50,055 bases of DNA from Verrucomicrobiota bacterium (GTDB lineage Bacteria > Verrucomicrobiota > Verrucomicrobiia > Limisphaerales > Palsa-1400), in the NCBI GenBank assembly GCA_049510745.1, contig JBEKYR010000041.1, positions 1 through 50,055 on the forward strand, written 5' to 3'. The position numbers and the translations under genes were made by a program. Below are positions 5,923-29,581 of the stretch, one piece after another. The notes below the pieces were generated by a model. The model was not told the origin of the DNA. It did not search any database and was given only the letters and a program-made list of their open reading frames with translations. Position 1 is the stretch's first letter; each line of letters starts with the position of its first letter.

Positions 5923-6348
5923 ACAGGCCGCGTCCTTCGCGGGTGAGATGAGAAGTGGCGCTTGGCCCCACCCCCCCTGCTTTAAGGAAAAGTTTTGAAG
6001 TTTGAATCAGTGAATGAGTGAGTGGGGCAATGGAGGCGGGGGATTGCTGCGAAGGAACGCAAGGAGCACAAAGAGAATGACTTACAAACGAACCAGGAAT
6101 GATGGAAAAAAATTCGAGCAAAAAGATTGCCCTTTTTAATCTTGCCGCCAGCCGCCCGTTTGTTTACCGCCGTGGCTCTGGCGAGGATTGAAAAAGCGAT
6201 TGTTTGAGCCGCCGCCGCGGTCGCTGAAATCAACGGGAGAAGTTAAGAAACGGGCGGTCCGATGGGTGGCCCCTGCGACAGTTTGGGGTTGGCGATAACG
6301 CCTTGCGTGCTCTTTGCCTGTGAGTCGAGTGCGATTTGGCCAATTCTT

Positions 6349-6363
6349 GTTTGACCCCTTTGA
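6349..6363. repeat. TGACCCC-type end motif GTTTGACCCCTTTGA
   Basis: 15-bp exact match to 27871-27885, with similarity extending upstream (gcca(a)ttct); about 30 bp from the stop of an accessory gene. Confidence 0.7.
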
Positions 6364-6394
6364 TTCGCCCAGGCCCGCAAACTTCGCTGGCTTT

Positions 6395-9300
6395 TCAGGG
6401 TTGAACTGCCCTGAAGAACTGCATTTGGTTCGTTGCGCCGTTGAGGTTGATGCTCTGGAACATGTCAGTCAAAGTCACGCTTCCCACCGTGCTCCAGGAG
6501 TTCCGGTCGGCCAGGTTCGTGGTGGCGACCAGATCATAGGTCACGCCGGGATTGCCGTAGAGCGTGAGTGCCCGGCTCGAATTGGTTCCCAGCGAGGCGT
6601 CCAACAGCGACTGGCGGTCGATCACCACCAGGCGTCCCATTTGGGCGAGGAGATTTGTTGCCGGAGAATTGTTTGAAGCCACTGCGCTGATGTTGGCAAC
6701 CGTCAGCGGGACAAACGCAGAGGCGCCAGGCAGTGTGTCCAGGCAAATCGAGCCGAGGACCGCAGTGCCTTGCAACGTCTGGCCACGCTGGATGCCAAAG
6801 GTGAATTGCGTGTGGGAAGGATCAAGCGCAATTGCTGCCGCGGAAGCAACCACGGAATTACTCGGCGTAATGTTCCAGTTTGTAAGAAATCCACTCGGAT
6901 AAGCCAGGGTAAAATTCAAGTTCGTCAGGCCGACCGTAGCCACCAGACTCACCGGTACACAAGTGTTCTGGCCCGCTTGCACCACGCTTGAGCCAATGCT
7001 TACCTCGACGCAGTCGCCCACGCTCACGCTGAAGGTCATCGAGTTGCTCAGCGGAGGGGTGCCGCTGTCCATGGCCCAGACGGTAATCAGGTTGGTGGTG
7101 CTGCCCTGTTCGCATGTGGGTATCCATGTGAAAACGCCGTCTGCTGTGATACTGGCTCCGGCGGGAGCGTCGGAAGCAAGCATGAATGAAATAGGTCCAT
7201 TGGCACTATACGCGTAGTTGGTAACGATAACCCCTTGATTGACGTTCACGAACTGGTTGGAAACGTTGACGGTTAGCGGCGGACTATTGGTCGGCAAAGC
7301 AACCACGCTCACGGCGTCCAGCGCGACGCTAGTGTCGTAGGCCGGAGTGGAAGTATCTGTAAAAACGAGAGTTGTGTTGGTGGTTCGCGCGGAAAATGTC
7401 ACCCGAACTGTGGACCACACCTCCTCATATGGAGGGATGTAAGCAGTCTCGTTGCTGGCCAAAAGTGAGCCATCGCTGGCCAACATCGTCAACGTAAGGC
7501 TTTTGAGATTACCGCCATTGTAAAAAATCGCGGGTGCCACCGAGTACGTCACTAGATAAGTCTCTCCGATTATCGTGCTAAACGTTTGATACACAGCTCC
7601 CTCTGGCGGCGCGTTCTGCGAATCAAAAACCACCCATTGTTGTCCGTCCGCCGGGTTCAACCCGGAAAAGGATCCCGTGAATAAAAAAACCTCGTTTACG
7701 GTCCCGCCGATGGTCCACCCCGTCAGCCATGTGTCGCCCGGGCCAGCGTATCTATCATTTCCGGAGGTAATCACCGGAACCTCGAAACCTCCATTTATGA
7801 GCAGGCCCACTTCCAGAACTGCCGCGAGGCTGGTGATGCTGCCATACGCATTGGTCACGATGACTGAATAATTGCCGGCATTGGCGAGTTGGGCGTTGGT
7901 CACGATGTAGCTGCTGTTCGTCGCCCCGGAAATACTCGCGTTGTTGAACAACCATTGATACGCCAATGGCGCCGCTCCATCCGCCACAACGCTGAAGGTT
8001 GCGGTTGCGCCCTGAGCCACCTGTTGGTTTTCCGGCTGGGTGACAATGAAGGCACTAGCAGACGTCAAACTGACAGACGCCATTTGCAGACCGGAAAGCA
8101 CGGAATACAAGCTGGCTCCAGTTTCCGCTGTAATGGTGATCGCCTGCCCGGCGGAAATGCTCACATTGGTGAACTCCACATACTGCACCCCTTCCTGCCA
8201 CACCGAAGAAAGCCAGCCGGGACCGTTGATCGTCGCCTCACTCCCATAACTCTGCGAGCCTACCGTGATCTGAAAAACGCTGTTTTGGTTGTCCTCATTC
8301 CCGTGTCCGTAGAGATAAAAGTCATACCCGCCCGCAGCTAGATTGGTGACCGTCACCGAGATGTCGGGATATTGGTCGCCAGTGTCGCTCACTAAATAAT
8401 TTCCGTACATGGGATCAGACGCCCCGTTTCCATTGTTTCCCTGGACATAGGCGACCATCACTCCTGCGCCTGACGTACTGCCATCCATAAACTTCATGTT
8501 GGGCAACGATCCGGACCCCGGGAAACCGTGACCGGTAATTGTCGTGCATGTATTCCAGAAATCGTTGGTGGTCACTCCAGTGGCGGCAAATCCCGTCTTG
8601 CCCGTGACCGAAGCGGTCGTGAAAGCCACATCAATAACCGTGGTAACCGGCGTAATGACGTTTAGTGCCGCCACGGCACTGGTAAGGCTGCCATATGAAT
8701 TGGTTATGATGACCGAATAATTGCCTACATCGGCGGGTTGGGCGTTGGTAACGATGTAGGTGCTGTTCGTCGCCGCAGAAATATTGGTGTTGTTAATCAG
8801 CCATTGATACGCCAATGGCGCCGCTCCTCCCGCCACAACGCTGAAGGTTGCGGTTGCGCCTTGAGCCACCGCTTGGTTCGTCGGTTGGCTGACAACGAAG
8901 GGTCCGGAAGATGACGGGCTGACGGGCGCCATTTGCAGACCGGAAAGCACGGCATAGCCACCGGCTCCCGGTTCCACCATAATGGTGATCGTCTGACCGG
9001 CGGAGACGCTCACATTGGTGAACTTCACATACTGCACCCCTTCCTGCCACACTGAAGAAAGCCAGCCGGGACCATTCGTCGTCGCCTCACTCCCATAGTT
9101 CTGCAAGCCAACCGTGATCTGAAAAACGCTGTTTTGGTTGTCCTCATTCCCGTGTCCGTAGAGATAAAAGTCATACGTACCCGCAACCAGTTCGGTTACG
9201 GTTACCGTCACTGTGATGTTCCCGCCTTGGGTGTACAGATAAGTTGCATACATGGGATCAGACGCCCCGTTTCCATACACTCCCCCGACATTGGCGACCG

Positions 9301-9562
9301 TCAATCCTGCGCCCGACGCCGTGTCATTTACGAGTTTTAAGCTCGGCGATGCTCCTGAACCCGGATTCAAACTATTAACGCCGCCGACAGTGCAGGTATT
9401 CCAGAAATCGTTGGTGGTCATTCCTGTGGCGGCAAAGCCCGTCTTGCTCGTAACTGATGCACTCGTGAAAGCCACATCAATGAGAGTGCCAGCGCTCGAC
9501 GTCATGGCAGCGGCCAGAAGGACCACCGCGAAAAGCAGGTTAATACACCTTAAATTGCGCAT
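6395..9562 (-). CDS. Large secreted Ig-domain protein with duplicated N-terminal module, DUF642-like and cohesin-like regions
   Basis: Signal peptide; Ig I-set motifs 'QPTNQAVAQGATATFSV...YQW...GNYSV'; 283-aa internal repeat; ends 'QFFRAVQP'; lower GC than neighbours. Confidence 0.85.
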   Translation of the reverse strand: MRNLRCINLLFAVVLLAAAMTSSAGTLIDVAFTSASVTSKTGFAATGMTTNDFWNTCTVGGVNSLNPGSGASPSLKLVNDTASGAGLTVANVGGVYGNGASDPMYATYLYTQGGNITVTVTVTELVAGTYDFYLYGHGNEDNQNSVFQITVGLQNYGSEATTNGPGWLSSVWQEGVQYVKFTNVSVSAGQTITIMVEPGAGGYAVLSGLQMAPVSPSSSGPFVVSQPTNQAVAQGATATFSVVAGGAAPLAYQWLINNTNISAATNSTYIVTNAQPADVGNYSVIITNSYGSLTSAVAALNVITPVTTVIDVAFTTASVTGKTGFAATGVTTNDFWNTCTTITGHGFPGSGSLPNMKFMDGSTSGAGVMVAYVQGNNGNGASDPMYGNYLVSDTGDQYPDISVTVTNLAAGGYDFYLYGHGNEDNQNSVFQITVGSQSYGSEATINGPGWLSSVWQEGVQYVEFTNVSISAGQAITITAETGASLYSVLSGLQMASVSLTSASAFIVTQPENQQVAQGATATFSVVADGAAPLAYQWLFNNASISGATNSSYIVTNAQLANAGNYSVIVTNAYGSITSLAAVLEVGLLINGGFEVPVITSGNDRYAGPGDTWLTGWTIGGTVNEVFLFTGSFSGLNPADGQQWVVFDSQNAPPEGAVYQTFSTIIGETYLVTYSVAPAIFYNGGNLKSLTLTMLASDGSLLASNETAYIPPYEEVWSTVRVTFSARTTNTTLVFTDTSTPAYDTSVALDAVSVVALPTNSPPLTVNVSNQFVNVNQGVIVTNYAYSANGPISFMLASDAPAGASITADGVFTWIPTCEQGSTTNLITVWAMDSGTPPLSNSMTFSVSVGDCVEVSIGSSVVQAGQNTCVPVSLVATVGLTNLNFTLAYPSGFLTNWNITPSNSVVASAAAIALDPSHTQFTFGIQRGQTLQGTAVLGSICLDTLPGASAFVPLTVANISAVASNNSPATNLLAQMGRLVVIDRQSLLDASLGTNSSRALTLYGNPGVTYDLVATTNLADRNSWSTVGSVTLTDMFQSINLNGATNQMQFFRAVQP
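7810..9484 (-). repeat. Intragenic tandem duplication (2 units, 849-bp offset)
   Basis: For example 8161-8246 nearly identical to 9010-9095; boundaries approximate. Confidence 0.85.
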
Positions 9563-9766
9563 AATCCGATCTTTTGGTTGAATGCTCGATTAACCAAGCA
9601 AACTCGGCTTGGCCACCCACCTTATGGAAAAGCCTCTTTAACGTTAAATGTTTAAACCTCCAACTTCAAGGCGATAATAAGCACCAGAATAACTTCGAAC
9701 GGAAAAGCACACACACTTCGCTTTCCCATTGCCCGACCGCCTGACCGCCGCTACGATTCGGCAAAC

Positions 9767-10555
9767 ATGACTGAACCCACAACTTTATTGTCGGCCAGAC
9801 CGGATGGACGGCGGCCGGATGAGCTTCGCCCGATTCGCTTCCAGAACGGCATCGCTCCCTACGCGGCCGGCTCGACCTTGATCGAGTGGGGCAATACGCG
9901 CGTGCTCTGCGGCGTGACTATCGAGGAGGGCGTCCCGCGCTGGATGAAGGAGCAGGGCGTCACCGGCGGCTGGATCACGGCGGAGTATTCCATGCTCCCG
10001 TATTCCACCCTGACGCGGAAGGCGCGCGATATTTCGAAGGGCAGAATCGACGGGCGCTCGCAGGAAATCCAGCGCCTGATCGGCCGCGCGATGCGGGCGG
10101 CGGTGGACCTGGAAAAGATCGGCCCGCGCACGATCTGGCTCGATTGCGATGTGTTGCAGGCCGACGGCGGCACGCGCACGGCGGCCATCACGGGAACGTT
10201 TGTCGCGCTGGCGCTGGCGGTCAACTCGCTGCGGGCCGCCGGCAAAGTGGCGGCGGAATTCGTCCTCAAACCGGTCGCGGCGGTCAGCGCGGGCATCGTG
10301 CGGTCGCAACCGTTGCTGGACCTGTCGTACGTCGAGGACGTGGCGGCGTCGGTGGATATGAATCTGGTGATGGACGCGGAGGGTCAGTTCATTGAGTTGC
10401 AGGGGACGGGGGAGGAGGCCGCTTTCAGCGAGCAGGAGTTGGCGGCCATGCTGGCGCTGGGCAAGGCGGGCATCGGGCAGTTGCTCGGGTTGCAGCAGGC
10501 GGCGATCAATTCCACGACAGATCGTCCGGCGAATCCGCCAGCAGGCGGCTCTTAA
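9767..10555 (+). CDS. rph: Ribonuclease PH
   Basis: 'GWITAEYSMLP', 'GRSQEIQRLIGR', 'DCDVLQADGGTRTAAITG'. Confidence 0.96.
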   Translation: MTEPTTLLSARPDGRRPDELRPIRFQNGIAPYAAGSTLIEWGNTRVLCGVTIEEGVPRWMKEQGVTGGWITAEYSMLPYSTLTRKARDISKGRIDGRSQEIQRLIGRAMRAAVDLEKIGPRTIWLDCDVLQADGGTRTAAITGTFVALALAVNSLRAAGKVAAEFVLKPVAAVSAGIVRSQPLLDLSYVEDVAASVDMNLVMDAEGQFIELQGTGEEAAFSEQELAAMLALGKAGIGQLLGLQQAAINSTTDRPANPPAGGS

Positions 10556-11066
10556 TCCCCTTTTGGCGCAGGATGCCGCGCCAGAGTTGGTCCGGTTGGG
10601 CGGAAAAAATCAAGTCCAGCGAAGCGGGGTGGATCAGCCAGTCTTTGCGGGCGATTTCGTTGTCCAATTGGCCGGCGGTCCAGCCGGCGTAACCGGCGAA
10701 TAATTTGAGTTTTTGGGTGGCGGAGAAGGATTCGCTCAAATCCATCAACACATCCAGCGAATGGCCGACGTTTAAATTGAGCATGACGTTGGCGTCGGCC
10801 AGGAACAGATCGCTGTGGAGAAAGCTCAAGGTCTGCGGCTGCACCGGGCCGCCGATAAACAACGGCTGTTCCTTGACCACGGCGGGCAAATTGGCCACCA
10901 GGGCCTGGCCGACCGTGCTGGAGGTGGCGCGGTTGAGGATCAGGCCGAAGGCGCCCTCGGTGTCATGGTGGCAGATCAAGACCACGGACCTGTGAAAAAA
11001 GGACCGGTGCAACTTGCCGCCGTCCAATAAAAGTTTTCCTTGCAACGATATATGCGTTTGCGACAT
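10506..11066 (-). CDS. YqgE/AlgH family protein
   Basis: 'FHRSVVLIC.H...GAFGLILNR', 'GGPV', 'GYAGW..GQLD.EI'. Confidence 0.92.
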   Translation of the reverse strand: MSQTHISLQGKLLLDGGKLHRSFFHRSVVLICHHDTEGAFGLILNRATSSTVGQALVANLPAVVKEQPLFIGGPVQPQTLSFLHSDLFLADANVMLNLNVGHSLDVLMDLSESFSATQKLKLFAGYAGWTAGQLDNEIARKDWLIHPASLDLIFSAQPDQLWRGILRQKGIKSRLLADSPDDLSWN

Positions 11067-11134
11067 AGCCGCCTCCAGCCTGCCCGGCCTGGTCTGGCAG
11101 TTTCCGCCTTGCCGGACTGCCGTTCGCAGTCCTG

Positions 11135-13216
11135 CTATTTTCTATCTTGCAGCAAACCCCGCGCCGCCTCGATAAGTTTCGCCGCCGTCAGGCCGTGTTT
11201 TTCGTAAAGCTGCTCGGCCACCCAGGCCGATTGCCCAAATTCTCCGCGAATCCCCAGGGAATGCATGCGATGGGGCACGCCCGCCTGCGCCAGGGCATGG
11301 GAAATCTGCGCGCCCATGCCGCAGGCGACCTGGTGGTCTTCGATGGTGACGATGCGTCCGGCGCTACGGCTGACGGCCGGGCCGAGGGTCTGGATGTCCA
11401 CCCGGTTGATGAAGGGATTGGCCAGCACGGTGGCGGCGATGTTTTGCTGGCGCAACTGGCGGCCCGCCTCGATGGCCCGCCCCACCAGCGGCCCGCAAGC
11501 GACGAGGACAACGTCGTTGCCCTCGGCCAAAAGCTGGGCCTTGCCCCATTCATATTTCGCATTTTCGACCCAGCGGACGGGGTAATTCTCGCGTCCAACA
11601 AAAAAGAGGACCGATTCGCCGTCGTGGCCGTGCTGGCGGGCGTGGGCCAGGCGTTTGATCGCCTCGTGCATCAGCGCGTCCGCCTCGTCCGCGCACGAGC
11701 AGGCGATGACGATGGTGTGCGGGATGGCCGAGGTGGCGGCGAAATAAGTCGTCGCCTGATGCGACGCGCCGTCGGCGGCGTCCTGGAAACCGACGTGGGA
11801 AAAGATGGCGATGACCGGCGCTTGGGAAAGGGCGGACATGGTCAGGGGCAGGTTCCCCTTGGTGACGCCGAACTGGCCAAAGGTATCGACAATGGGAATG
11901 AAGCCGGCTTTGGCGAAGCCCGCGCCGACGCTGATCATGTTCGCCTCCGCCACGCCGACTTCGACGAAGCGGTCCGGGAAACTTTTCTGGAAGAAACTCA
12001 TCCCCGTCGAGCCTTCGACATCGGCGGAAATGGAATAGACCGGCAGGCCGTCCTGGGCGGCGCGCACCGCGCCCTTGGCCAGGCCGCTTTGCACCTTGTC
12101 TTTCTTGACGGCTGGCGCGGCGGGGGCGGCCGCGGGCGCCGCCGCCTTTTTTGCCGCCTCCTTCTTTTCCCAATCGGCGCGCAAGGCCCGCGCCCAATCG
12201 GCCAGGAGGGCGGGGACCGGCCCGGCGCCCCAATAAATTTCGTTGACAAAGTCGATGATCTTTTCGCCGTTGCTCAGGGGAAACCCGTGGCCGCCCGAGG
12301 CGCTTTCCACGGTCGAGCGCACGCCGAAGCCCTTGACCGTCTTGACCCAGAGGCAGACCGGGACGCGCGGGTTGGCCCGGGCCTGGGCGATCCCGTCCTC
12401 GACCGCCAGATAAACGGCCTGGAGATCATTGCCCTTGGGCACCTCGATCACGTTCCAGCCCAGGGCGCTCATGGCGGAAAAGGTCGGCGCCATGCTGAAG
12501 GCGTCGATGGTGATGCGGCCGGAGAGCTTGGTGTCGTTGTCGGAGAGGACCATGACGAACGGGTTGAGCCGGTCCTTGGAAGCGAAGCCGGGAATGGCGG
12601 CGAAGGCTTCCTTGGCCTCGCCTTCCATCGAGGCGCCATCGGAAACGGTGCAGATGGTGACGCGGTCATTTTTGCGCAGCCGGTCGGCCATCGCCAGGCC
12701 CTGGGACTGGGGCAGGGCCGAGCCGAGCGGCCCGTTGCTCAAGAGCACGCCTTGCGGGTTGAGATGCGATTCGCCGTGCCCGGTCAGCTTGCTGCGAAGG
12801 CTCCGAAACCCCTTCAAATCCTCGAACGTCATCCCGTCGAAACCGTAATTGGAGCGCAACGCGTAAATGCCGTTCTCGGTGTGGCCGGCGTCGTTGACAA
12901 AATTGAACGCTTCATGCCAGGGGCGGCCCGGCGTGGCGAACATGAGGCCGTGAATGGCGGCCATGATTTCGGCGAAGGCGGACGGACCGCCCCAATGCGA
13001 GGCGGCGCCGCCGTTGACGGCTTCCAAATCCATCAAGGCCACCAGGGCGCGGGTCGCCCGCGGATCGCCCAAAACGACGGGCTGGCCGCGGGCGTTGTTG
13101 ACGGTGATGGAGAAGATGGGCGGCCCGGCGGGAGTCGGGGCCAGTTTGGATTTCAGAGGCAACGGCGCCAGCGGCGGGGCGGCGGCGGGTTTGACGGCGG
13201 ATTTATCCTCGGACAT
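11135..13216 (-). CDS. Transketolase-family TPP enzyme (single polypeptide)
   Basis: 'LTGHGE', 'GPLGSAL', TPP motif 'SDGASMEG...N', 'EVGVAEANM', 'DGASHQ', 'TIEDH'. Confidence 0.88.
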   Translation of the reverse strand: MSEDKSAVKPAAAPPLAPLPLKSKLAPTPAGPPIFSITVNNARGQPVVLGDPRATRALVALMDLEAVNGGAASHWGGPSAFAEIMAAIHGLMFATPGRPWHEAFNFVNDAGHTENGIYALRSNYGFDGMTFEDLKGFRSLRSKLTGHGESHLNPQGVLLSNGPLGSALPQSQGLAMADRLRKNDRVTICTVSDGASMEGEAKEAFAAIPGFASKDRLNPFVMVLSDNDTKLSGRITIDAFSMAPTFSAMSALGWNVIEVPKGNDLQAVYLAVEDGIAQARANPRVPVCLWVKTVKGFGVRSTVESASGGHGFPLSNGEKIIDFVNEIYWGAGPVPALLADWARALRADWEKKEAAKKAAAPAAAPAAPAVKKDKVQSGLAKGAVRAAQDGLPVYSISADVEGSTGMSFFQKSFPDRFVEVGVAEANMISVGAGFAKAGFIPIVDTFGQFGVTKGNLPLTMSALSQAPVIAIFSHVGFQDAADGASHQATTYFAATSAIPHTIVIACSCADEADALMHEAIKRLAHARQHGHDGESVLFFVGRENYPVRWVENAKYEWGKAQLLAEGNDVVLVACGPLVGRAIEAGRQLRQQNIAATVLANPFINRVDIQTLGPAVSRSAGRIVTIEDHQVACGMGAQISHALAQAGVPHRMHSLGIRGEFGQSAWVAEQLYEKHGLTAAKLIEAARGLLQDRK

Positions 13217-13251
13217 AGGAATGTATTCTGGCGTGCTGGTGAGAAGAAAAA

Positions 13252-13328
13252 TGGTGCGCGCGGCGGGAGTTGAACCCACAACCTTCGGCTCCGGAGGCCG
13301 TCACTCTATCCAGTTGAGCTACGCGCGC
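13252..13328 (-). tRNA. tRNA-Arg (anticodon CCG)
   Basis: GCGCGCGTAGCTCAACTGGATAGAG...CT-CCG-GA...GGTTCAACTCC...GCGCGCACCA; 77 nt, encoded CCA. Confidence 0.96.
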
Positions 13329-13440
13329 AAGTTTAGTGAACATATCGCGAATCACAAGCCGCTGCAAGGCAGGCGGCAGGGGGATTATGGCCTTTCCGCC
13401 CGTCTCCGCAAGAAAATCCAGCAAAAGCAAAGGCTGTTCC

Positions 13441-14136: not shown

Positions 14137-14235
14137 GCCGCGCAGTGTAGGGCCGGGCGGCTTGCGACTCACGCAAAAAAACTCCAGCAAAAAAACCTCC
14201 CCTTTTTTCGGGAACCGCCGCCGAGGCGATTACCG

Positions 14236-14261
14236 AACTTTGTCCCACGTGGGACAAAGTT
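14236..14261. promoter_or_regulatory. 26-bp perfect palindrome (candidate operator)
   Basis: AACTTTGTCCCACGTGGGACAAAGTT, about 100 bp upstream of the methyltransferase start; function inferred. Confidence 0.45.
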
Positions 14262-14342
14262 TCGTAGGACTATTTATTTGACAATAAGGCTCCGCAACGC
14301 GGTGGTTGTTTTGGCGCGAGCCTCATTGCACAATGACTGTTC

Positions 14343-14945
14343 CTACATCCTGTCCTGGCCGGGGGTGCGGGCGGTGCTCTGGGCCGGCCGTTTGAATTCG
14401 GAGAAAATGAGCCGTGTCTGAAAAACGTCATCCTGCAAATCGGGCAGGACCGCCGAGGCCACCTGCCGCAGGTCCGGGTTTTTGCCGCCTTGCGAAGCGT
14501 CCTCCAGCAGGCGCACGGTGGCTTCCTGGTTCTTGATCATCTCGCCCAAAGCCGCCCGGTCGAACTCCGGGCCGGACAGGGCCGCGATTTTGTCGAGCGT
14601 GCGCGAAGCCTGGTCGCCAGACTTCGGCTCCAAGGTGACACCCAAAGATCGCGCCAGAGTGTCCAATTGCTGGACAGCCTGGGTGTAGTCCTGAACAATT
14701 TTTTGGCCCAACTGCTTGACTTCGTCGTTTTGGCTCTGTCGCTGGATCAACTGGCCGAAGTGCTGTTCGCGGAGGCTGTTCTCGGAAGCTTGCTGGATGA
14801 AATGCTGGTCGTGGGACGAGACCTTGGCCGCGCCCCCCGCGCAAACCAACCACGATGACAAGAGGAACCATGCCGCAGTGAGCGCGCAAACCCGAATCTT
14901 TTTCAACGTCTCCGCCGTCGAAAAACTTCTGGATATGATGTTCAT
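14343..14945 (-). CDS. DUF4142 family secreted protein
   Basis: 'DQHFIQQA', 'VKQLGQKIVQD', 'LSGPEFDRA', 'NPDLRQVA'. Confidence 0.85.
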   Translation of the reverse strand: MNIISRSFSTAETLKKIRVCALTAAWFLLSSWLVCAGGAAKVSSHDQHFIQQASENSLREQHFGQLIQRQSQNDEVKQLGQKIVQDYTQAVQQLDTLARSLGVTLEPKSGDQASRTLDKIAALSGPEFDRAALGEMIKNQEATVRLLEDASQGGKNPDLRQVASAVLPDLQDDVFQTRLIFSEFKRPAQSTARTPGQDRM

Positions 14946-15072
14946 ACCGCTCTCTCTTTCTTATTCACTCTGCTCTTACCGAGCCGATTCTCTCATTCAT
15001 CCTTTGTGTCGGATGGATCTAACCGGACTATTGCATAAAGCGTGCCGGTCCCCGACCATTAGCGACTTTTCC

Positions 15073-15298
15073 GGGAGCGCGGTCGTCGCGACCGCATCCG
15101 TCGGTGTCCCGCCGACGGAATCCTAAGCCGTATCCATGTAGTTGAAAAACGGTAGCGCGACCGTCTCGGTCGCTTCCAGTCGGCGTCCCGCCGACTGGCG
15201 GTGAGATAAAAAGACTCACTTTTCAGTGATTCATCGCAAAATGGTTAAATGCCTTCGGCGAGACGCCGAAGGCAGCGGACGAGGACGTCCGCGCTCCC
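15073..15298. repeat. Cluster of three REP-like double-hairpin repeats
   Basis: 15073-15121 and 15151-15198 in direct orientation, 15254-15298 inverted; GG(G/T)AGCGCG head plus CGGYGTCCCGCCG hairpin; adjacent to a Y1 transposase remnant. Confidence 0.8.
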
Positions 15299-15350
15299 AA
15301 TCCTTCTGCATGGCTACGGCTAAGGGATGGGTCGCGAAGGGGTCGGGGAA

Positions 15351-15644
15351 GGGGTTAGTTCCTGGCAATGCCACATTATTGGTTGACAGGGCAGGCGAGA
15401 CGGGCCATTCTGGCGGTATGGCGCGAACGCTTTGCCTGCAATATCCGGGCGCGCTTTATCATTTGATGAGCCGCGGCGACCGCCGGGAAGCGGTCTTTTC
15501 TGGCGTTGTGGCGGGAAACAACGATGCCGCGCAAATGGATCTGCGCCCCTCTCGAGATGGGATCCTGGAAATCCGTCAATCGCAGACCCTATGAACACAG
15601 ACCAATAAAATGTTGACACGCTAGGTGACCCCTGCTATGACCCC
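15351..15644 (+). mobile_element. Internally deleted HUH/Y1 (REP-associated type) transposase element
   Basis: N-terminus 'MARTLCLQYPGALYHLMSRGDRREAVF' (from 15418) joined out of frame to C-terminus 'LWRETTMPRKWICAPLEMGSWKSV'; bounded by GGGGTTAG (15351) and TGACCCC twice (15626, 15638). Confidence 0.8.
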
Positions 15645-15790
15645 TTTACGCACGCCCGCCGCCAGCCCGTGGCTGCCACCCAAGCCTAAGCATTAGCAAC
15701 CCAAAAAAGTGAATGCACCCCCCGCAACACGAAAGGCAATTGATCTGTTGTTGCGCATGACGGCGATGAGGTGTAAGATTTAAAACATCT

Positions 15791-16201
15791 ATGGACTGGC
15801 TACGAGACTTTGTTACTAAGAGAGACATTGAACAGCGTAATGCGGAAGAGAGAGGAAAGTTGTATGCCAAGCAACTTCATGACGAGTTGTCAAAGGTGAC
15901 TCCAATGGTCCACCGATTACTGTATGATTTGGGGAGAGCGTATTTCGGCACCGATTGGCTCAGCCCTTTACGTGAGAAGTTTCAGATAGTGAAGGATGAC
16001 TACTACCATACGTGGCGCCTCCAACGCCCATATCTGTCGGGGTATTTCGAAGTCTCCTTGAAAATGGAAATGGGCACACCACCTTGTTTCAAAGTCGTTT
16101 CAGGCGCGGGTGATATTTTCACTAAAGACACTTCGGAAGCTGAGTTGAAGCGGGTGCTTCACATTGCAGCAGAGCAAGGCACATACTCAGATCCAAGGTA
16201 A
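15791..16201 (+). CDS. Hypothetical protein (lower-GC cargo)
   Basis: 136-aa ORF with protein-like composition; no family recognised. Confidence 0.65.
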   Translation: MDWLRDFVTKRDIEQRNAEERGKLYAKQLHDELSKVTPMVHRLLYDLGRAYFGTDWLSPLREKFQIVKDDYYHTWRLQRPYLSGYFEVSLKMEMGTPPCFKVVSGAGDIFTKDTSEAELKRVLHIAAEQGTYSDPR

Positions 16202-16323
16202 TCCTGTGGTGTTGTATCCTAACCGCATGGAAATGTGTGTCGCCACATTCACGGGGGGATTGAAGTTGCCCGCTGCTCGTGAGAATGTGACTCACCCTTC
16301 TTCCAACGTCTGGCGGGTGAATC

Positions 16324-16342
16324 GGGGTTGCATCTAAACATT
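16324..16342 (+). repeat. End motif GGGGTTGCATCTAAACATT
   Basis: 17/19 identical to 29224-29242; related to 24352-24370 on the minus strand. Confidence 0.7.
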
Positions 16343-16611
16343 GAGGTTACCGGGTTGATTCGGACAGGGTAAAAACAAAACGGAGCCCAGATGGTGAGAC
16401 CATCCGGACTCCGCCCAAACCGCACCCGCGGTTTGGTGACTACTGCAATTACCTTTATAACTTCCGCGAGATCTGGCTGCCACTAGGGGGTTCCTTGCCG
16501 CCACTGGGAGAACCCTTGGTTTTTCGGGCCTCTGAAGTGGAGTTTGTGTGCATCTCACTAATTGGACGCTCGTCAACGCCGCGGGAGCGCCAGCCTCAAT
16601 CGACCGGGGAA

Positions 16612-16783
16612 AATGACGAATGACGAAATTCTAATGTCTAATGAATGCTCAAATGACTCAATGACTAATATGGACCAACGGCGTCGGTTTGGCTTCGTCA
16701 TTAGAAATTCGTCATTCTTTCGTCATCCCACGCGCCAGCGTCAGCCCAATAATTTGTTCACTTGTGCTTCGTCATTCGTCATT
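16612..16783. repeat. AATGACG heptamer hairpin element, copy 1
   Basis: Perfect 16-bp terminal inverted repeat, 16612-16627 / 16768-16783. Confidence 0.85.
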
Positions 16784-16915
16784 CTTTTGCGCCTGAGTGC
16801 GGCCAGCCATTATCCCTCATTAACCAGCGGGTTTCCAAAAACCGGGATGCGTCCGTGGAGTCTTGCGTCCTCGTCCGAGTTGCCAAAGGCAGGGGGTTTG
16901 GGGTTCAATTGGCGG

Positions 16916-17533: not shown

Positions 17534-17538
17534 CGGCC

Positions 17539-18108: not shown

Positions 18109-18174
18109 CGAATAAAAGAATCAGTGAGTGAGTGAATCAGTGAATGGGCGGATAACTGCACCGAGGCCCAGGAG

Positions 18175-18298: not shown

Positions 18299-18422
18299 TT
18301 CGACGGTCGATTTGGGCTTAGTCTTCAGCGGCGCTAACGAGTGCCCAAAAAGATCCGCCTTGGTCGTGCCAGGCCGGCGCAACGGCCTTGCCAGTGGCCC
18401 GGCTTTGCGCGAGAATGGCTTT

Positions 18423-19625: not shown

Positions 19626-19685
19626 GCTGGCGGCGAAAGAGTCGAACCAGCGTGACATTTTGCGGGGCTTGCTGTCTAATCGAAG

Positions 19686-20255: not shown

Positions 20256-20262
20256 AATCAAG

Positions 20263-20484
20263 ATGAAACACGAGCACAAATTTTTGTCGAACCAGCAACA
20301 GGAGCAGGCGGCCGAGGCGCAGACGGCCAAAACAACGGCCAAGGAGTTTGCCAGCGTCGAGGAATTGCTGCGCCACGACGCCGCGCAAACGACCGTGCCG
20401 CCGGAAATCGCCCAGCGGCTGCGCCATTCGGCCCTGGAAATTGGCGCCCCAAAACGTCCGTGGTGGCGCAAACTGCTGGATTGA
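20263..20484 (+). CDS. Small protein (73 aa) with C-terminal amphipathic PWWRKLL
   Basis: Fills the gap between sigma and rhomboid genes with 7-bp and 5-bp spacers. Confidence 0.7.
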   Translation: MKHEHKFLSNQQQEQAAEAQTAKTTAKEFASVEELLRHDAAQTTVPPEIAQRLRHSALEIGAPKRPWWRKLLD

Positions 20485-20489
20485 TTCGT

Positions 20490-22003: not shown

Positions 22004-22182
22004 GCGCCGACGCCCCCAATCCGAACGCCGCCGAGCCGTTGACGACGGAGTTTCTCCTCTTGCCCGACGGCACGGTCCTGGTGCAGAATCTGACTCCAGC
22101 CATGGCCGCGATCCTGCTCGAACTCAACCCTGACGAAGAGGCCATCCGCCGCCGCGTCACCGCCGGCCAGGCGATGGATTGA
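22000..22182 (+). CDS. Small hypothetical protein (60 aa)
   Basis: ATGA overlap with the radical SAM gene; 4-bp gap to the AAA gene; 'EFLLLPDGTVLVQNLTP'. Confidence 0.7.
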   Translation: MSADAPNPNAAEPLTTEFLLLPDGTVLVQNLTPAMAAILLELNPDEEAIRRRVTAGQAMD

Positions 22183-22186
22183 TCCC

Positions 22187-23740: not shown

Positions 23741-23755
23741 CCCGCGCAAAACGGC

Positions 23756-24067
23756 ATGGGACCATTTTGGCGCAACTGTTTTGAAGACATCGGCCAGACC
23801 GGCCGGTATAGCGGGGCGTTATTTCTCTACGCTTTGGCCGGGGTTTTCGCGTTTCTGATCGCGGTTGCCCTGCTCGTAGAGATTCCGCTCGCTTATTCTC
23901 CCGTTCCGATAGGCGCGTTTTTGATAATCGCCGCGTTCTGCCTCTGGCGGGCCGTCCGGCGGGCGCGCCGGCAACGGGAGGGCTACTCCAGCCAGCCATT
24001 GTCGCGCGAGGAATGGCGCAAGGCGCGTTCAAAGCTGTTGGGAAATCAAAACATGAGGAAGCCCTGA
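23756..24067 (+). CDS. Small 2-TM membrane protein
   Basis: Two hydrophobic stretches and a basic tail; 15 bp after the AAA stop. Confidence 0.6.
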   Translation: MGPFWRNCFEDIGQTGRYSGALFLYALAGVFAFLIAVALLVEIPLAYSPVPIGAFLIIAAFCLWRAVRRARRQREGYSSQPLSREEWRKARSKLLGNQNMRKP

Positions 24068-24163
24068 GGGGCTTGGTTGCGGTATATTTCCCGGCGATGG
24101 CCTATGCAAAACTTCGTGCTCTTTGCGCCCTTCGTCGTGAAAATTGGGTTGCGACTGCCGCGC

Positions 24164-24266
24164 TGCGCCTTATGCCCTGGCGTTTCGTCTGATCCGCTCC
24201 GGTGCCGGGGAATCGGGGGATGTTAAGGAAAGAGGGACAAACCGGCGCAACGGGACGGCGACGGCA
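24164..24266 (+). repeat. ~103-bp direct repeat, copy A
   Basis: About 90% identical to 27510-27613. Confidence 0.9.
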
Positions 24267-24351
24267 GCCCACCCAAAGAGACCGCTTTCCTTGGTCTGAC
24301 CTTTTTGGTGACCCGGCGCTCAATCGCTGTCGAAAAGAGCTTAAAATGTAG

Positions 24352-24370
24352 AATGTTTAGGTTTGGCCCC
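24352..24370 (-). repeat. End motif GGGGCCAAACCTAAACATT (minus strand)
   Basis: 16/19 match to 29224-29242. Confidence 0.65.
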
Positions 24371-24446
24371 CAGGCTTCGACTTCATGCCAGATTAGCCAA
24401 ATATTGTTTGCAGGCCGACAAAATATGTGCAATACTATCGGTGCCT

Positions 24447-24578
24447 ATGCAACTGAAGGTGTTCATGGCGCCTGTGGAAAATGTGGCCGCCGCGGAGGCG
24501 GAGGTGAACGCGTTTCTGCGCGGACACCGGGTACTGGCGGTGAAGAAGGAATTTGTGGCCGATGGTGAAAATTGTTCT
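24447..24578 (+). pseudogene. N-terminal fragment of an HRDC-domain accessory protein
   Basis: 'MQLKVFMAPV...EAEVNAFLRGHRVLAVKKEFVADGEN' resembles N-termini of DGR-associated HRDC proteins; the HRDC domain itself is absent. Confidence 0.6.
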
Positions 24579-24694
24579 CAACCGCGCGGCGTCAAGAACA
24601 TGACGGGACGCAAAAAGCGAATGCGTATCAATTGGCCGAGACCGGCCGAAGACAGGCATGAATTACCTATCAGTTTAAACCAAAGTTCCCTGCT

Positions 24695-26836
24695 ATGAAA
24701 ACGAAGCGTTCCTTTGCTTTTCGCCAGTTCGCCCGGATGCGGCGCACCGTCCTTCGCACCCTGGCGTTTATCATTGTGGGTGCTCCTGTGCTGCTGCCGG
24801 CCCAATATTCGGAAATCAAAATGGGCGAATACCTTCACTATGCGGTGGTGGCCGGGAATGGCGGCGTCTATGCCGGATACGACGGGATCGGATTCGGTGG
24901 CAGCAGCTACGGCACCCCTTCGCTTTATAAGACCAACACCGGTTGGGTGGATCTTCCGTGCTCGATGGGGTTCAACACTTCGAGTCCCTACATCGGCCAG
25001 CCCAGAGGCATCAGCCGCGACGGCTCGGTTGTGGCCGGATACATGTCTGGCGTGGCGACCAACGGAGTTGGAACCCAATACGCGGTTTACTGGGTGAACG
25101 GCGTCGAGTCGCTGGTGCCAGCCCCGCCGGACGATCCGGCACCGACCCTCATGAGCGCCAGCGGCCTTTCCGGCGATGGAACGACGCTGATCGTGCAGGA
25201 CCAGAACGCCAACAAAACGGAAAGTTATGTTTACAAAATCGCCGGCGGGACGTTCACGTCCCTCGGTTTTTTTCCGGGAGGCACCAACCAACAAACGTAT
25301 GCGACCGCGATCAACAAGGATGGCAGCATCGTCGCCGGCTATTATAATCTGGATGACGGGACCAGCCATGGGTTCATGTGGCATGCCACCAATGGCTTGA
25401 AGGACATGGGCATCCCGGCCAGCCACCGCAATACCTATTACCTGGAACCCACATGCATCAGCGATGATGGTGCCACTGTGTTCGGCCGGCTCACCGAGCT
25501 TAACGGCTGGGTGGGCTTCCGCTACAACACCACGACCGGCTTTCAGGATACCGGGGGCGTTGTGCCCAGTGCCTGCACGGCGGATGGAACGGAAGCGGTC
25601 GGAATCGAAGATATGTATTTCCCGGCCATCTGGTCGGTTGGAAATGGCAGCGGTTATCTGGACCATCTTCTTACCGCCAACGGCACGCCGCAGGCGCTGG
25701 GGACCCTCTCGGCTCCGGTCACCATGTCACCCGATGGCTCAGCCGTTACGGCCATCGGCCCGGATGCCTATCCGGTTGACCAGGTCTGGGGCGGCACTTG
25801 GCAGATTTCCCTGCCGGTTCCCCTGAAAACGGCGGCGTTTCCGCCGGCCAAGCTGACCTTCTCAACGCCTTTCCAGGAGACGCTCAGCGAGGCGGCTGGA
25901 ACGCTAATTCAATCTGCCGATTTCAACAGCGGCGTGTCTGCTGTTCTCGTCACGAAACCGCACTACGCATCCTCGTTTGTTCTGAACGCGAACGGATCAT
26001 TCAGCTATACACCCAAACCGGGATATATCAGCAATGGCAGCGATCCCGAAGTTGGCACCCCCAATGACCGCTTCACTTACCAATTGACAGGTCCGAACGG
26101 AACCAGCAGCAACGCCGTAGTGGAGATTGTCGTGGCGGCACCCACGATCCCGACGGTCGATACGCCCGCGTCCGCAAATGTCACCGCCACGACGGCCACG
26201 CTCGGTGGCGTTGTGGAGAGCGATGGGGGAGCAACCCTCATCGGCATTGGCGTGGTCTATGCGCCCACGGCCGTTGACAGCAACCCGCAGCTCGGCGACA
26301 CGATGGCGAGCAACGCCGCCGGCATCGCCACGACGGGCGCCTTCACGGTCACTGTCAGCGGCCTCACGCCGGATACCGTTTACTCCTATGCAGCCTATGC
26401 CACCAACAGCCTGGGTGTCAGCTACAGCGTGACCGGCATTTTCATCACGCTGGTGAACCCCTTAAGCTGGCAGCAGATGTGGTTTGGTGACCCGACCAGC
26501 AGCAGTGCCGCCTTGAATGCGGATCCTTACCAAACCGGTGTCCGGAATATTCAGGTCTTTGCCTATCTCGGGCCGTATCAGGATCCCAGCACGGCCAGCG
26601 CTGCCCTGCTCCCGCAGGTGCAGATGGGCGGCGGCAATCTTTTCTACAGCTTCACCGAACCCGCCGGGGTGAGCGGAATCACCTATGGCGCGCAGTGGAG
26701 CGCGACCATGCAACCCAACGACTGGCACGCCGTCCCCGACACCGGCGACCCCACCGCCGCGCCGCCCAGCCACCTTTTCAGCATACCCATGACCAGCCCC
26801 CAACTCTACATGGGGCTGACGTTGACCGTTCATTAG
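24695..26836 (+). CDS. Secreted protein with HAF-like repeats, cadherin-like (Big_9) and FN3-like domains
   Basis: 'GISRDGSVVAG', 'ATAINKDGSIVAG...HGFMW', 'LNANGSFSYTP', 'GLTPDTVYSYAAYATN'. Confidence 0.85.
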   Translation: MKTKRSFAFRQFARMRRTVLRTLAFIIVGAPVLLPAQYSEIKMGEYLHYAVVAGNGGVYAGYDGIGFGGSSYGTPSLYKTNTGWVDLPCSMGFNTSSPYIGQPRGISRDGSVVAGYMSGVATNGVGTQYAVYWVNGVESLVPAPPDDPAPTLMSASGLSGDGTTLIVQDQNANKTESYVYKIAGGTFTSLGFFPGGTNQQTYATAINKDGSIVAGYYNLDDGTSHGFMWHATNGLKDMGIPASHRNTYYLEPTCISDDGATVFGRLTELNGWVGFRYNTTTGFQDTGGVVPSACTADGTEAVGIEDMYFPAIWSVGNGSGYLDHLLTANGTPQALGTLSAPVTMSPDGSAVTAIGPDAYPVDQVWGGTWQISLPVPLKTAAFPPAKLTFSTPFQETLSEAAGTLIQSADFNSGVSAVLVTKPHYASSFVLNANGSFSYTPKPGYISNGSDPEVGTPNDRFTYQLTGPNGTSSNAVVEIVVAAPTIPTVDTPASANVTATTATLGGVVESDGGATLIGIGVVYAPTAVDSNPQLGDTMASNAAGIATTGAFTVTVSGLTPDTVYSYAAYATNSLGVSYSVTGIFITLVNPLSWQQMWFGDPTSSSAALNADPYQTGVRNIQVFAYLGPYQDPSTASAALLPQVQMGGGNLFYSFTEPAGVSGITYGAQWSATMQPNDWHAVPDTGDPTAAPPSHLFSIPMTSPQLYMGLTLTVH

Positions 26837-26910
26837 CGCGCGTTATTGCATCAAGAATCCTCACGCCCCACCGGTTGGCAGTGAAATTTCGCGCGCGCAG
26901 CGCTCAGCAG

Positions 26911-27162
26911 GCGCGGGCGCGGGACTTGAACGTGCGGGCCAGGCCGCCGGAACCGATTCTGATGGGGCGTCATTTGATCGAGGCCGGCTTGCGGCCTGGG
27001 AAGGACTTTGCCGGCATCCTGGGCCGGGCTTACGAAGCCCAGTTGGAAGGGGCGTTTGGCGACCTGCCCGGGGCGTTTGCCTGGCTGGTCGGCAGCGCGG
27101 CCTTCGCGTTTTCGGAGGAGGCCAAGACTAAATTACGGGCGCGCGCGGAGGGTGCGGCCTGA
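26911..27162 (+). pseudogene. 3' fragment of a CCA-adding enzyme/poly(A) polymerase family gene
   Basis: 'PEPILMGRHLIEAGLRPGKDFAGILGRAYEAQLEG' matches the family C-terminus; no start codon or catalytic domain. Confidence 0.7.
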
Positions 27163-27177
27163 AATTTTTCTTTTTCT

Positions 27178-27247
27178 GGCACGATTAGGCACGATTTAGC
27201 ACGATTTGGCACGATTTGGCACGATTCACCGCGATTTAGCACGATTG
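27178..27247. repeat. 10-bp tandem repeat, 7 units (consensus RGCACGATTT)
   Basis: ggcacgatta ggcacgattt agcacgattt ggcacgattt ggcacgattc accgcgattt agcacgattg. Confidence 0.9.
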
Positions 27248-27509
27248 GCCATGCGGCGGCCGCGAATGACGCCATTGCTGGCGGCCTGGGTCCGTCCTGC
27301 GGCGAGTGAACAGGACCGCTCCCCGGCGGCTGCGCTTTATGTCAAAGAGCAAGCTCTCGCACGGTGGAAATATGACACAGTTCTGTGTCTCGGCAAGTCT
27401 TTTTGTTACTTTTTGAGGTTTTCCCGGCCTTTTTTTCGCGGAGTGCAGAACAACGCAAAGGGCAAAAGACGCGAAGGCGCCAAGGAAAGTTCAGAACTCT
27501 TTGCGTCTT

Positions 27510-27613
27510 TGCGCCCTATGCCCTTGGCGTTTCGTCCGATCCGGTCCGGTGCTGGGGAAGCGGGGGATGTTAAGGAAACAGGGACAAACCGGCGCAACGG
27601 GCCGACGCCGGCA
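27510..27613 (+). repeat. ~104-bp direct repeat, copy B
   Basis: About 90% identical to 24164-24266. Confidence 0.9.
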
Positions 27614-27870
27614 ACTCAGCCGGAAATACCAACTTCCGAGGACCGACCTTTGACTTTGACTTTAAGCTGTTTCAACCCGTTGCACACCATCGCTTGCCAC
27701 ACGCGCAAACCATTGATAATGAATCTGTTGTATCGGTTCATGCCGGTTTTCCCCCTGTCGCAAAGGGCCGAGGTTCCGACCCCAAAAGTAGCACAAAAAG
27801 TAGCACAGACCAAAAACAGACCCAAAAACAACCCTAGAAACAACAAAAAGCTTATCTAAGCGCCATTCTG

Positions 27871-27885
27871 GTTTGACCCCTTTGA
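27871..27885. repeat. TGACCCC-type end motif GTTTGACCCCTTTGA
   Basis: Exact match to 6349-6363. Confidence 0.7.
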
Positions 27886-27954
27886 CCGCAATTTTCCTAC
27901 ACGTTCCGCCCGCGCCAACGGCCCAAGCGGCAGCGCGTCAAACGCGGGCCGCGA

Positions 27955-28791
27955 TTACTGGCTCAACCGGTAAAACGTCTGGGTAAGCGAGATCGCATTA
28001 GTCACCGTGTTCTGCCCGTTGATGACGACCGGTCCTGGAGAAACCGTACTCCAGGCCGCCACGGAAACTAGGTTCGTGGTGGATTGCAAAGTGAACCCGG
28101 CGACATTGGTCGGCCACGTCAAAATTACATCCGCGCCGGAACGTATTATCGCCAACTGAGACGAAATATTCGAAGCAGTGACCGAGAAATTACTAAACGC
28201 AACCTCAACTCCTGGAGTAATACCGGCCGGCCAGATGGAAAGCTCAATGCTGACAGCCGATGAGATGCCAGAATCAGTAGAGCCAATTTGTGTCCAGGAA
28301 CCGCTGTTCAAATAATAGCCAGTGGTCACAGTGCCGATTCTTTCAATTTTCAACGTGCCGTTCACATCACTGGTTGGAGCGGAGATATTGATCACGTGAT
28401 TTACATCGGTCGTATACGTCTCACCGCCAAAGCCATTGTCGCTAATTCGCTCCACTGCACCAACGGAAGTGCGAATCCCAAGCCGTTCCCCATTATTGTA
28501 GGGCCAATAAAGCAGTGCATAGTCTACAGCGGCAGAAAAGTCGCCCTGAGACATAAAACTCAAGACAAGATTGGCATCGCCAGAGGTCCCCTGCGTCATT
28601 ACAACGCTTCCATTGGTGAGAGCCACGGTGCAATTACCACTACTGGTGTCAACCGTCCACCACAGCGGGTTAAGGGTTTCTTCGCTCAAGCTATCAGAAA
28701 AAGTGTTTGCCATTGTGGTTGAACCTGGGCACAGAAAAACCAACATTGTTATTAGTAGGCTGCTCGCTTTCAATATGCTTGCTGTTTTCAT
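27955..28791 (-). CDS. Secreted beta-rich protein with C-terminal FYR domain (lower-GC cargo)
   Basis: Signal peptide; 'VILTWPTNVAGFTLQSTTNL...TFYRLSQ'. Confidence 0.8.
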   Translation of the reverse strand: MKTASILKASSLLITMLVFLCPGSTTMANTFSDSLSEETLNPLWWTVDTSSGNCTVALTNGSVVMTQGTSGDANLVLSFMSQGDFSAAVDYALLYWPYNNGERLGIRTSVGAVERISDNGFGGETYTTDVNHVINISAPTSDVNGTLKIERIGTVTTGYYLNSGSWTQIGSTDSGISSAVSIELSIWPAGITPGVEVAFSNFSVTASNISSQLAIIRSGADVILTWPTNVAGFTLQSTTNLVSVAAWSTVSPGPVVINGQNTVTNAISLTQTFYRLSQ

Positions 28792-29223
28792 GGTCGATGA
28801 GTTAGGTTATGATATAATTGAGACTTTCTTATGAATGGGTCAGTTCTTGGTTTTGGTAACTCTCGCAACATTCTGCTTTCGATTTGTAGGCAAGGGTAAA
28901 AAATTGGCGGCAGCCCTTCGTAAAACGCCCCAGCCGTCCCGAAAATGTTGGCGGTGACGGAAGTTGGTCCGATTGGGATCCAAAAATGGCGGGCGAGTTG
29001 ACGCCATCAGTGAGACTTCGGATTGTTGTGGCCCGGTTCTTCATGCGTTGCTTTTTACATTATTTACATTATCAAGAGTCGCATCCGCGCGTCAATTTTT
29101 ATTTTCGTGATTTAACCACGGAGGGTGCAGGACAAACTGGTTTGAGATTTGAAGGGTTCATTAGGCAGCGAAGGCCAGGCTGGGGGTCGCGTTGCTTTGG
29201 TGCTTCCAAATGTTGCGGCCTGT

Positions 29224-29514
29224 GGGGTCACATCTAAACATTCGATTCTGCTGAAAAAACCCCCTGTTTTGAAAATTCACCAAATCCAGGAAATAGAGTC
29301 AAGTAGAGGAATTGCCAGGATCGATTGTGGGCGGCTTTTTCTGAGTGATGGGAGTGTTTTGGTGGTGTTTTCAAGTGTTTCTTTTTGACCATGGAAGGTT
29401 TTTCAGCAGAATCAACATTCAACAATTCGGCTGCCGATTAGAAGAATTGGGATCATGCCATTATCCTGTTTCTCCCGTCAAAGTCAGATGTCGAATGTTT
29501 TAGGCTTGACTTCC
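29224..29514. mobile_element. Putative non-autonomous (MITE-like) element with GGGGTCA-type inverted ends
   Basis: GGGGTCACATCTAAACATTCGA ... TCGAATGTTTTAGGCTTGACTTCC; internal 15-bp inverted repeat 29244-29258 / 29399-29413. Confidence 0.5.
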
Positions 29515-29581
29515 AGGCTTCCCTTTAAGGCGGCGTTACCGCCGAGCGATGACCTATACAATTGGGTAGGAGAGCGAAGAA

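Follow-up and report, generated by a model that had tools for sequence, protein, structure and literature searches.

Terminal inverted repeats of TIRYT elements and the accessory genes on their outer side in a Verrucomicrobiota genome

The window analysed here, a stretch of 50,055 nucleotides, is contig C41 (JBEKYR010000041.1) of the Verrucomicrobiota bacterium assembly GCA_049510745.1 (source genome G000; 5.6 Mb, 94% complete), and peat and wetland metagenomes also contain its DNA. Below, C with a number denotes a G000 contig, G001, G002 and so on are other genomes, and L with a number marks other loci or metagenome contigs. A first-pass annotation had noticed GGGGTCA/TGACCCC motifs around a deleted Y1 transposase gene and at the edges of accessory genes, and had read them as one family of capture or exchange sites, integron-like but with neither integrase nor attC. 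All the sites it listed are present at the coordinates claimed in a pattern scan of the window. We identify them as the terminal inverted repeats (TIRs), some of them decayed, that bound TIRYT/TIRtron elements of TnpA-Y1 subclass 2.1.2. The GGGG side of a TIR is referred to as outer and the opposite side as inner.

One such element has been deleted internally. Its left TIR (subfamily D, 15339..15380, +) carries GGGGTTAG at 15351, with a partial GGGGTC copy 12 nt upstream, and its right TIR (subfamily D, 15607..15644, -) has GGGGTCA doubled, appearing as TGACCCC at 15626 and 15638. The dead TIRYT gene between them (15418..15613, +) consists of codons 1-28 fused to a piece like amino acids (aa) 276-311; the HUH motif and the conserved tyrosine are gone, leaving a C-terminal scrap and the 28 N-terminal codons. 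Many similar remnants occur throughout G000. A 136-aa orphan open reading frame (ORF; 15791..16201, +; GC content 0.47) is flanked by outward-facing TIRs, the subfamily-D end on one side and a truncated 19-nt subfamily-B TIR (16324..16342, +) on the other, the latter lacking a partner in the 400 bp to its inner side. In 300 further genomes from the order nothing matches the orphan, and two homologues (53-61%) exist; no source was found for it in viral contigs, and its Atlas matches (at most 0.90) have no family.

A secreted 278-aa orphan gene (27955..28791, -; GC 0.50) also lies between outward-facing TIRs. To its left is a 12-nt TIR stub (first G 27880; 27869..27885, -, with the outer flank included), directly adjoined by the end of an unrelated insertion sequence that has inserted into the TIR (27851..27868, -). 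The 15-mer reported at 27871 is exact, but it consists of this stub plus its outer flank. To the right, a subfamily-B TIR (29224..29428, +) is split by a 170-bp MITE (a miniature transposable element with inverted repeats; 29244-29413) with a 7-bp duplication, and makes an inward-facing mini-element with a degenerate subfamily-B TIR (29485..29512, -). That degenerate copy had been placed near 29494; it exists, but its first position is 29512 (-). The 278-aa gene is indeed enclosed by outward TIRs, but it starts 433 bp from 29224 and not at the border. At its locus in G001, the gap upstream of xseA is 278 bp and holds no TIR. Both orphans fit the outward-facing pattern described below and are absent from the same place in relatives.

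The two large surface-protein genes of the window, also proposed as cargo, are weak cases: their homology to relatives stops with the stop codon or peters out ahead of the motif. A TIR-like stub (6349..6363, -; first G 6358) turns its A-rich outer flank towards the stop of a lower-GC gene on its outer side, encoding a 1055-aa secreted Ig/DUF642 protein (6395..9562, -), whose homology to G022 stops at the stop codon. This stub holds the other exact 15-mer, at 6349; the two copies are the only ones in 5.6 Mb (0.006 expected) and lie about 30 bp from the stop of the 1055-aa gene and about 70 bp from that of the 278-aa gene. The 19-mer of subfamily B occurs at 29224 (0 mismatches), 16324 (2) and 24352 (-, 3), the last within a TIR (24343..24370, -) whose outer edge faces the module of a 713-aa HAF-repeat/Ig surface-protein gene (24695..26836, +). 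Homology of this module to G001 starts near 24381, and its neighbours differ in G001 and G002. The idea that the 713-aa gene ends at a TIR of the window was dropped, a TIR-like remnant being present there in G001 only.

Directly behind the 713-aa module, 26866-27162 is a 3' gene fragment 62% identical to aa 278-372 of a G001 protein, with an intact copy of the gene on C38. The gaps that hold the TIRs also hold unrelated dispersed repeat families (15050-15325, 16365-16730, 27165-27655 and 29575-29635; 5-49 genome blocks each). A low-GC gene pair with NOV_C and Vsr domains (38192-39409) has no recognised TIR adjoining. An Rfam scan of 5800-30000 found a tRNA at 13255-13328 only, and promoter and terminator scores across 15300-16450 were near chance.

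TIRYT enzymes and TIR subfamilies

Y1 genes framed by GGGGWSAS TIRs have been named TIRtrons, with TIR monomers, dimers and clusters described (PMC3733652), and PMC6006769 identifies them with TnpA-Y1 subclass 2.1, the C-terminus being DnaA-like in its subgroup 2.1.2. As far as the passages cited from these two papers go, the elements found here share with them the Y1/HUH gene framed by such TIRs at fixed distances, the DnaA-like C-terminal helix-turn-helix and the dispersed TIR monomers, dimers and clusters; the same passages describe no cargo, polarity, edge duplications or Rhs arrays. The Y1 subclass with short TIRs to which the first-pass annotation had pointed is TIRYT.

G000 has three intact-looking TIRYT genes (on C6, C8 and C10, none in the window) and 31 TIRYT pieces in all; the C6, C8 and C10 proteins match PF01797 above cut-off. 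The gene at C8:1022-3 goes with subfamily A and that at C6:131287-132333 with subfamily C. A related protein occurs in 26 of the 31 genomes of the family, and H60, H62 and Y119 are invariant in 15 of 15 TIRYT proteins. A profile of 15 proteins matches DnaA domain IV at the C-terminus (8btg, E 2.6e-5; 1j1v, E 3.3e-4). An earlier PDB profile search with 6 sequences gave no match, single-sequence Pfam matches to this domain are weak (3 of 9, none above cut-off and none in the proteins of G000 itself), and a single-sequence AlphaFold model (pLDDT 40.5) was not used. RAYT/TnpA-REP proteins also belong to the HUH superfamily and also disperse short repeats, as the consulted parts of PMC8266576 and 10.1101/119735 describe. 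The RAYT model NF047646 gives 42-59 bits for four of four proteins, below the NCBIfam cut-off of 80. Unlike the REP, BIME and REPIN sequences of RAYTs, the present TIRs are not GTAG-tagged palindromes, and the proteins, at 305-350 aa, have an added helix-turn-helix.

Intact TIRYT genes have their own TIR pair of 24-28 bp, about 60-75 bp upstream and 7-50 bp downstream of the gene. Near-perfect pairs starting GGGG[AT][CG]A[CG] surround L094, L095, L103, L106, L112, L118, L123, L034 and L038, and many other TIRYT loci gave no pair with the pattern used. A TIR pattern scan of G000 yielded 105 matches against 3 in the reversed genome, and a scan with a position weight matrix 64-67 sites against 0-1; long motifs are thus enriched. 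The heptamer GGGGTCA alone is not (594 observed, 635 expected from a Markov estimate), and we dropped it as a signal in itself. Nor do the sites form a single motif family as first supposed: they fall into several TIR subfamilies, and each of these belongs to its own TIRYT clade. Subfamily B, that of the 19-mer, frames a TIRYT gene in G008.

At least 10 subfamilies coexist and nest. At C6:131170-132999, C8:1088-2584 and C76:113-605, a single TIRYT gene sits inside nested TIRs from more than one subfamily, with C-terminal scraps of older genes between the TIRs and left ends in tandem at a 39-112 bp period. Non-transposase genes lie inside inward-facing TIRs of different subfamilies at L076:5028-7636 (G015) and C11:131576-132794, and one of the two keeps a 47-codon TIRYT start. 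At C16:71105-71395, a Y1 transposase domain sits in frame within the alanyl-tRNA synthetase reading frame.

TIRs are also entered by other elements. By eye, an insertion sequence with ends GAATGGC(A/G)CTTAG, which we take to be IS4-like, abuts TIR sequence in 8 of its 9 G000 copies (window 27851-27880; C3:115, C8:274103, C23:70210, C55:115, C59:18787, C65:18507 and C54:9984), with an apparent 11-bp duplication of the TIR start; it therefore seems to target several TIR subfamilies. The MITE that splits the subfamily-B TIR of the window (29244-29413), with ends GATTCTGCTGAAAA, occupies the identical position inside TIRs in four genomes, including loci in G015, G022 and G006 (L077:3471, L079:4909, L234:6813 and L235:2319).

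Polarity, paired TIRs and edge duplications

The curated TIR set of G000 comprises 117 sites in 79 blocks, namely the 105 pattern matches minus a few in-gene or insertion-sequence-only ones, plus matrix matches and 15 hand-checked ends; sign tests exclude blocks near contig ends or with both flanks of one type. The enrichment of TIRs at low-GC borders proposed earlier is borne out, and it is directional: the outer flank is lower in GC in 48 of the 58 polar blocks. The bias persists without blocks that have TIRYT remnants in the inner window (35/42), with a single unit kept per cluster (36/42) and without the 15 hand-added sites (40/47). Flanks below 55% GC were found on the outer side of 71% and on the inner side of 14% of the 58 polar blocks, compared with 18% per flank in 436 intergenic gaps. 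When each ORF was counted once, GC at third codon positions (GC3) was below 0.65 in 33 of 64 outer-only neighbours, 6 of 54 inner-only neighbours and 15% of 259 sampled genes. Outer genes follow no orientation rule in G000, 36 facing the TIR with their stop and 30 with their start.

When two blocks stand within 3.5 kb of each other around non-TIRYT DNA in G000, they mostly face outward (16 pairs, with 2 inward and 4 direct), so that the layout of TGACCCC, cargo and GGGGTC first noted for two genes of the window is found 16 times. The segments within outward pairs have a GC of 0.46-0.56, mostly hold one ORF each, and are often bounded by different subfamilies. Of 38 selected ends, 36 lack an inverted partner in the 400 bp inwards; thus, the cargo-side ends are those that were kept. 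At C59:18150-22700 an operon is broken up by an outward pair with cargo, on whose flanks stand imperfect copies (72-88 bp) of the starts of the adjacent host genes.

Are these patterns simply mobile-element debris? TIRtrons, mini-elements and solo TIRs might insert in AT-rich variable spots in which foreign genes and other repeats accumulate too, end-initiated deletions might trim the islands to one gene, and the enzyme might move only its own ends. This explanation, which we consider unlikely, has several observations in its favour: TIR dimers and clusters have already been reported (in the part of PMC3733652 consulted), the outer flanks are A/T-rich, the same gaps hold many unrelated repeats, some of them equally near low-GC DNA, other insertion sequences target the TIRs themselves, and many G015 TIRs resemble solo REP-style units downstream of genes. 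Random decay should nevertheless spare host-side ends equally, yet it is the cargo-side ends that are kept. Nor does decay predict TIR-headed Rhs modules with differing subfamilies and fusion points in several genomes.

A second feature of the outer edge is duplication. Exact tandem duplications span it in 37 of 257 TIRs; the inner edge has 4 and a distant control site 8. The run of Gs may make this count too high. With two exceptions the duplications begin between -4 and -14 from the first G, in a range typical of the subfamily, and their ends lie at variable points within the TIR. They could be the product of nicking, short extension and resealing.

A breakpoint at a TIR edge was found in metagenome contig L207, where two G000 contigs are joined in the order R, cargo, L-TIRYT-R, cargo, L. 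One of the cargo genes encodes a protein of 100 aa with an 87% identical counterpart in G006, a genome of another genus, where it immediately follows an Rhs C-terminus. At the DNA level the homology (about 90%) begins 9 nt outside the TIR, and the Rhs gene is therefore cut off there. The first-pass annotation had expected breakpoints in relatives to coincide with the motif, and this one does, but it is the only clean case. In other near-identical metagenome contigs (L204, L205, L210 and L214, compared with C81/C36), a TIR-flanked Rhs-like fragment occurs in two alternative arrangements, which may reflect either a second copy or a polymorphism.

Rhs arrays in relatives and the integron-like platform

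Direct-repeat arrays in which cargo alternates with TIRs occur in G017, G015, G016 and G022. At six loci of G017, subfamily-H direct repeats head truncated Rhs genes, and many of these arrays end in one more TIR. Spacers downstream of the Rhs genes have a GC of 0.44-0.49, and in 7 of 9 an ORF stops 2-83 bp before the next TIR. Among 11 C-termini parsed from 18 modules, only one pair is alike. From their position, the genes downstream of the C-termini are probable immunity genes; four of five scanned G017 candidates have no Pfam family and one is a TPR protein. The TIRs at Rhs modules are of subfamily B in G022 and G002 and mainly H in G006. Over 30 loci, a TIR or TIRYT remnant lies within 1.5 kb of 11 of 20 truncated and 0 of 10 full-length Rhs genes (Fisher p 0.004, the genomes not being independent). 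In two relatives, only about 0.9 kb, with no TIR, separates the genes that flank a 7.9-kb array. At L184:3613, L185:4193 and L187:5572, an ATG in the subfamily-H TIR is in frame with the truncated Rhs gene, whose start codon the TIR could supply.

The cargo is not restricted to Rhs modules. In G015, solo subfamily-A TIRs stand in direct repeat around helix-turn-helix/peptidase and other genes, and single TIRs adjoin restriction and PIN genes. A prepilin-like cargo homologue in G008 (L246) has no TIR adjoining.

The Rhs arrays might have been built without the enzyme, by homologous exchange between repeats in which TIRs are fused to Rhs cores or TIRYT tails, the TIR being a passenger. The direct repeats often include at least 130-250 bp of inner sequence beyond the TIR, and recombination of orphan Rhs effectors has been reported, with reference to Salmonella work, in the portion of 10.64898/2026.07.13.738213 consulted. 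We hold this to be very improbable, for it leaves the junctions at TIR edges behind differing genes, the outward pairs and the edge duplications unexplained.

True cassettes were considered as well. An HUH enzyme would excise TIR and cargo as a single-stranded circle between direct TIRs and reinsert them at any resident TIR. The arrays of G017, G015, G016 and G022 consist of TIRs and cargo in direct repeat; those of G017 moreover end in a terminal TIR, with ORF stops close before a TIR in most spacers. In G000, however, direct pairs are a minority (4/22) and outward pairs often mix subfamilies, and no identical cassette was found at two loci. The integron-like exchange platform suggested by the first-pass annotation is not supported, on related grounds: matched loci in relatives lack TIRs (0 of 38, and 0 of 11 in a further set), TIR sites thus being lineage-specific, no empty-TIR allele was seen, the units are not co-oriented, no platform is conserved and assembled contigs showed no excision. 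The Rhs arrays of G017 are co-oriented but scattered. We judge a cassette mechanism quite unlikely.

The locus 14190-16873 illustrates the comparison with relatives: methyltransferase and trpF genes stand near each other in 12 of 13 loci, with other inserts or none, and a subfamily TIR was recognised in G016 only. There, at L025:1500-2140, direct TIR repeats flank what is presumably a ParE-type toxin-antitoxin pair, and another gene, presumably a PIN gene, is cut at the first TIR. Two sets of apparent deletions in population contigs were rejected as excisions: the 15173-16727 skip joins two unrelated repeat families with sides of 20-33 nt, and the C2 skips have 30-nt sides typical of repeats. 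Because these sides are short and repeat-like, none was counted.

The premise that integrase and attC are both missing agrees with the scans made. TIGR02249, the integron integrase model, has 9 matches in the 94% complete genome, none above cut-off, and a simple scan without a covariance model found an attC-like core pair in 0 of 17 cargo segments, compared with 5 of 300 random windows.

Capture of foreign DNA at TIRs

What, then, might TIRYT do to produce the family membership, outer-side polarity, outward pairs, edge duplications, Rhs arrays and single breakpoint that we observe? We give an even chance to the possibility that intact TIRYTs encoded elsewhere in the genome nick a few bases outside GGGG and attach foreign DNA at that point by single ends, one after the other. 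The DnaA-like helix-turn-helix would bind the TIR, and the enzyme would nick 5' of GGGG, at about 8-14 nt in subfamilies A, B and H or at 4-6 nt in D, F and I. It would stay linked to the TIR strand, and any available 3' end could then be attached. Outward pairs would arise where a second TIR fixes the far end of the entering DNA, and direct-repeat arrays where homologous recombination does so, for instance in the Rhs core; a short 3' extension before resealing might leave the edge duplications. Such a nick would place foreign DNA on the outer side, where it is seen. The outcome would be scattered, lineage-specific gene acquisition rather than an ordered integron platform.

The chemistry has precedents in the parts of PMC8266576 consulted, according to which HUH enzymes leave a 5'-phosphotyrosine and accept a 3'-OH. 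TnpA-REP cleaves near its repeat and carries out strand transfer to a 3'-OH in vitro, the free 3'-OH of an added oligonucleotide being joined to the cleaved strand (PMC8266576). Capture by TIRYT predicts a nick 4-14 nt outside GGGG and the joining of unrelated 3' ends.

Several observations weigh against capture. Polarity in 20 other genomes is weaker (74/113, at loci partly chosen by us) and uneven, with 29/39 in G017, 6/12 in G008 and 0/4 in G011. One of seven control repeat families is also polar (20/27), and two of the seven adjoin low-GC DNA as often as TIRs do. GC and GC3 are only proxies for foreign origin, and the gene caller is crude. At the far end of the L207/G006 match, homology stops 5 nt past the stop codon, which leaves about 45 nt before the TIR stack is reached. 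Flanking target duplications were absent from 19 comparisons, except that one locus has host-gene repeats and another a shared repeat. Among the joints listed in population contigs, assembled from five runs and so blind to rare events, none is a TIR-bounded excision, and single contigs span cargo and TIR. In the literature searched, we found no biochemical study of any TIRYT, including TIR binding or cleavage.

More tentatively, and with less confidence than in capture itself, we propose that the subclass 2.1 Y1 enzymes may be a gene-acquisition system kept by the host, joining incoming DNA to chromosomal TIRs. The arrays that TIRYT may build in this way would hold orphan Rhs toxin-immunity modules as well as genes for toxin-antitoxin systems, restriction and surface proteins.

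How does this compare with other acquisition systems? Integrons consist of IntI, attI and attC. Their cassettes resemble the present segments in being low-GC single-ORF units between repeats and in carrying toxin-antitoxin, restriction and orphan cargo; here, by contrast, there is no integrase above cut-off, no attC-like pair, no co-orientation and no fixed site. The part attC plays in integrons is outlined in the consulted portion of PMC8266576. In rAID-1 (10.1101/471110) and in orphan Rhs/poly-immunity arrays (10.64898/2026.07.13.738213), low-GC probable immunity genes likewise lie between repeats, in a layout that the parts of these sources consulted present as suggestive of active acquisition. 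The rAID-1 of Bacteroidales, as described there, occupies one locus, with co-directional genes and an XerD-like recombinase at the 5' end, whereas the candidate enzyme here is a HUH nuclease acting in trans at many loci with mixed cargo. No XerD-like recombinase was called beside the arrays in the annotated loci, judged from ORF maps.

The element family itself is already known, and its TIRYT branch is barely covered in the literature searched; what is new is the polarity, the edge duplications and the TIR-bounded Rhs modules, none of which was found in that literature (subscription papers and supplements aside). If capture is wrong, the TIR subfamilies, their nesting and their use as insertion-sequence targets would still be a modest addition. 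If it is right, genes could be captured by a further route, one with no need of integrase or attC, and the spread of orphan immunity genes among soil and peat bacteria would have a mechanism. According to Bertels et al. (10.1101/119735, in the part consulted), RAYT-type enzymes probably serve the host in some unrecognised way. Host-kept acquisition, if true, would make TIRYT the HUH-run equivalent of integrons and rAID and might explain what that host role is.

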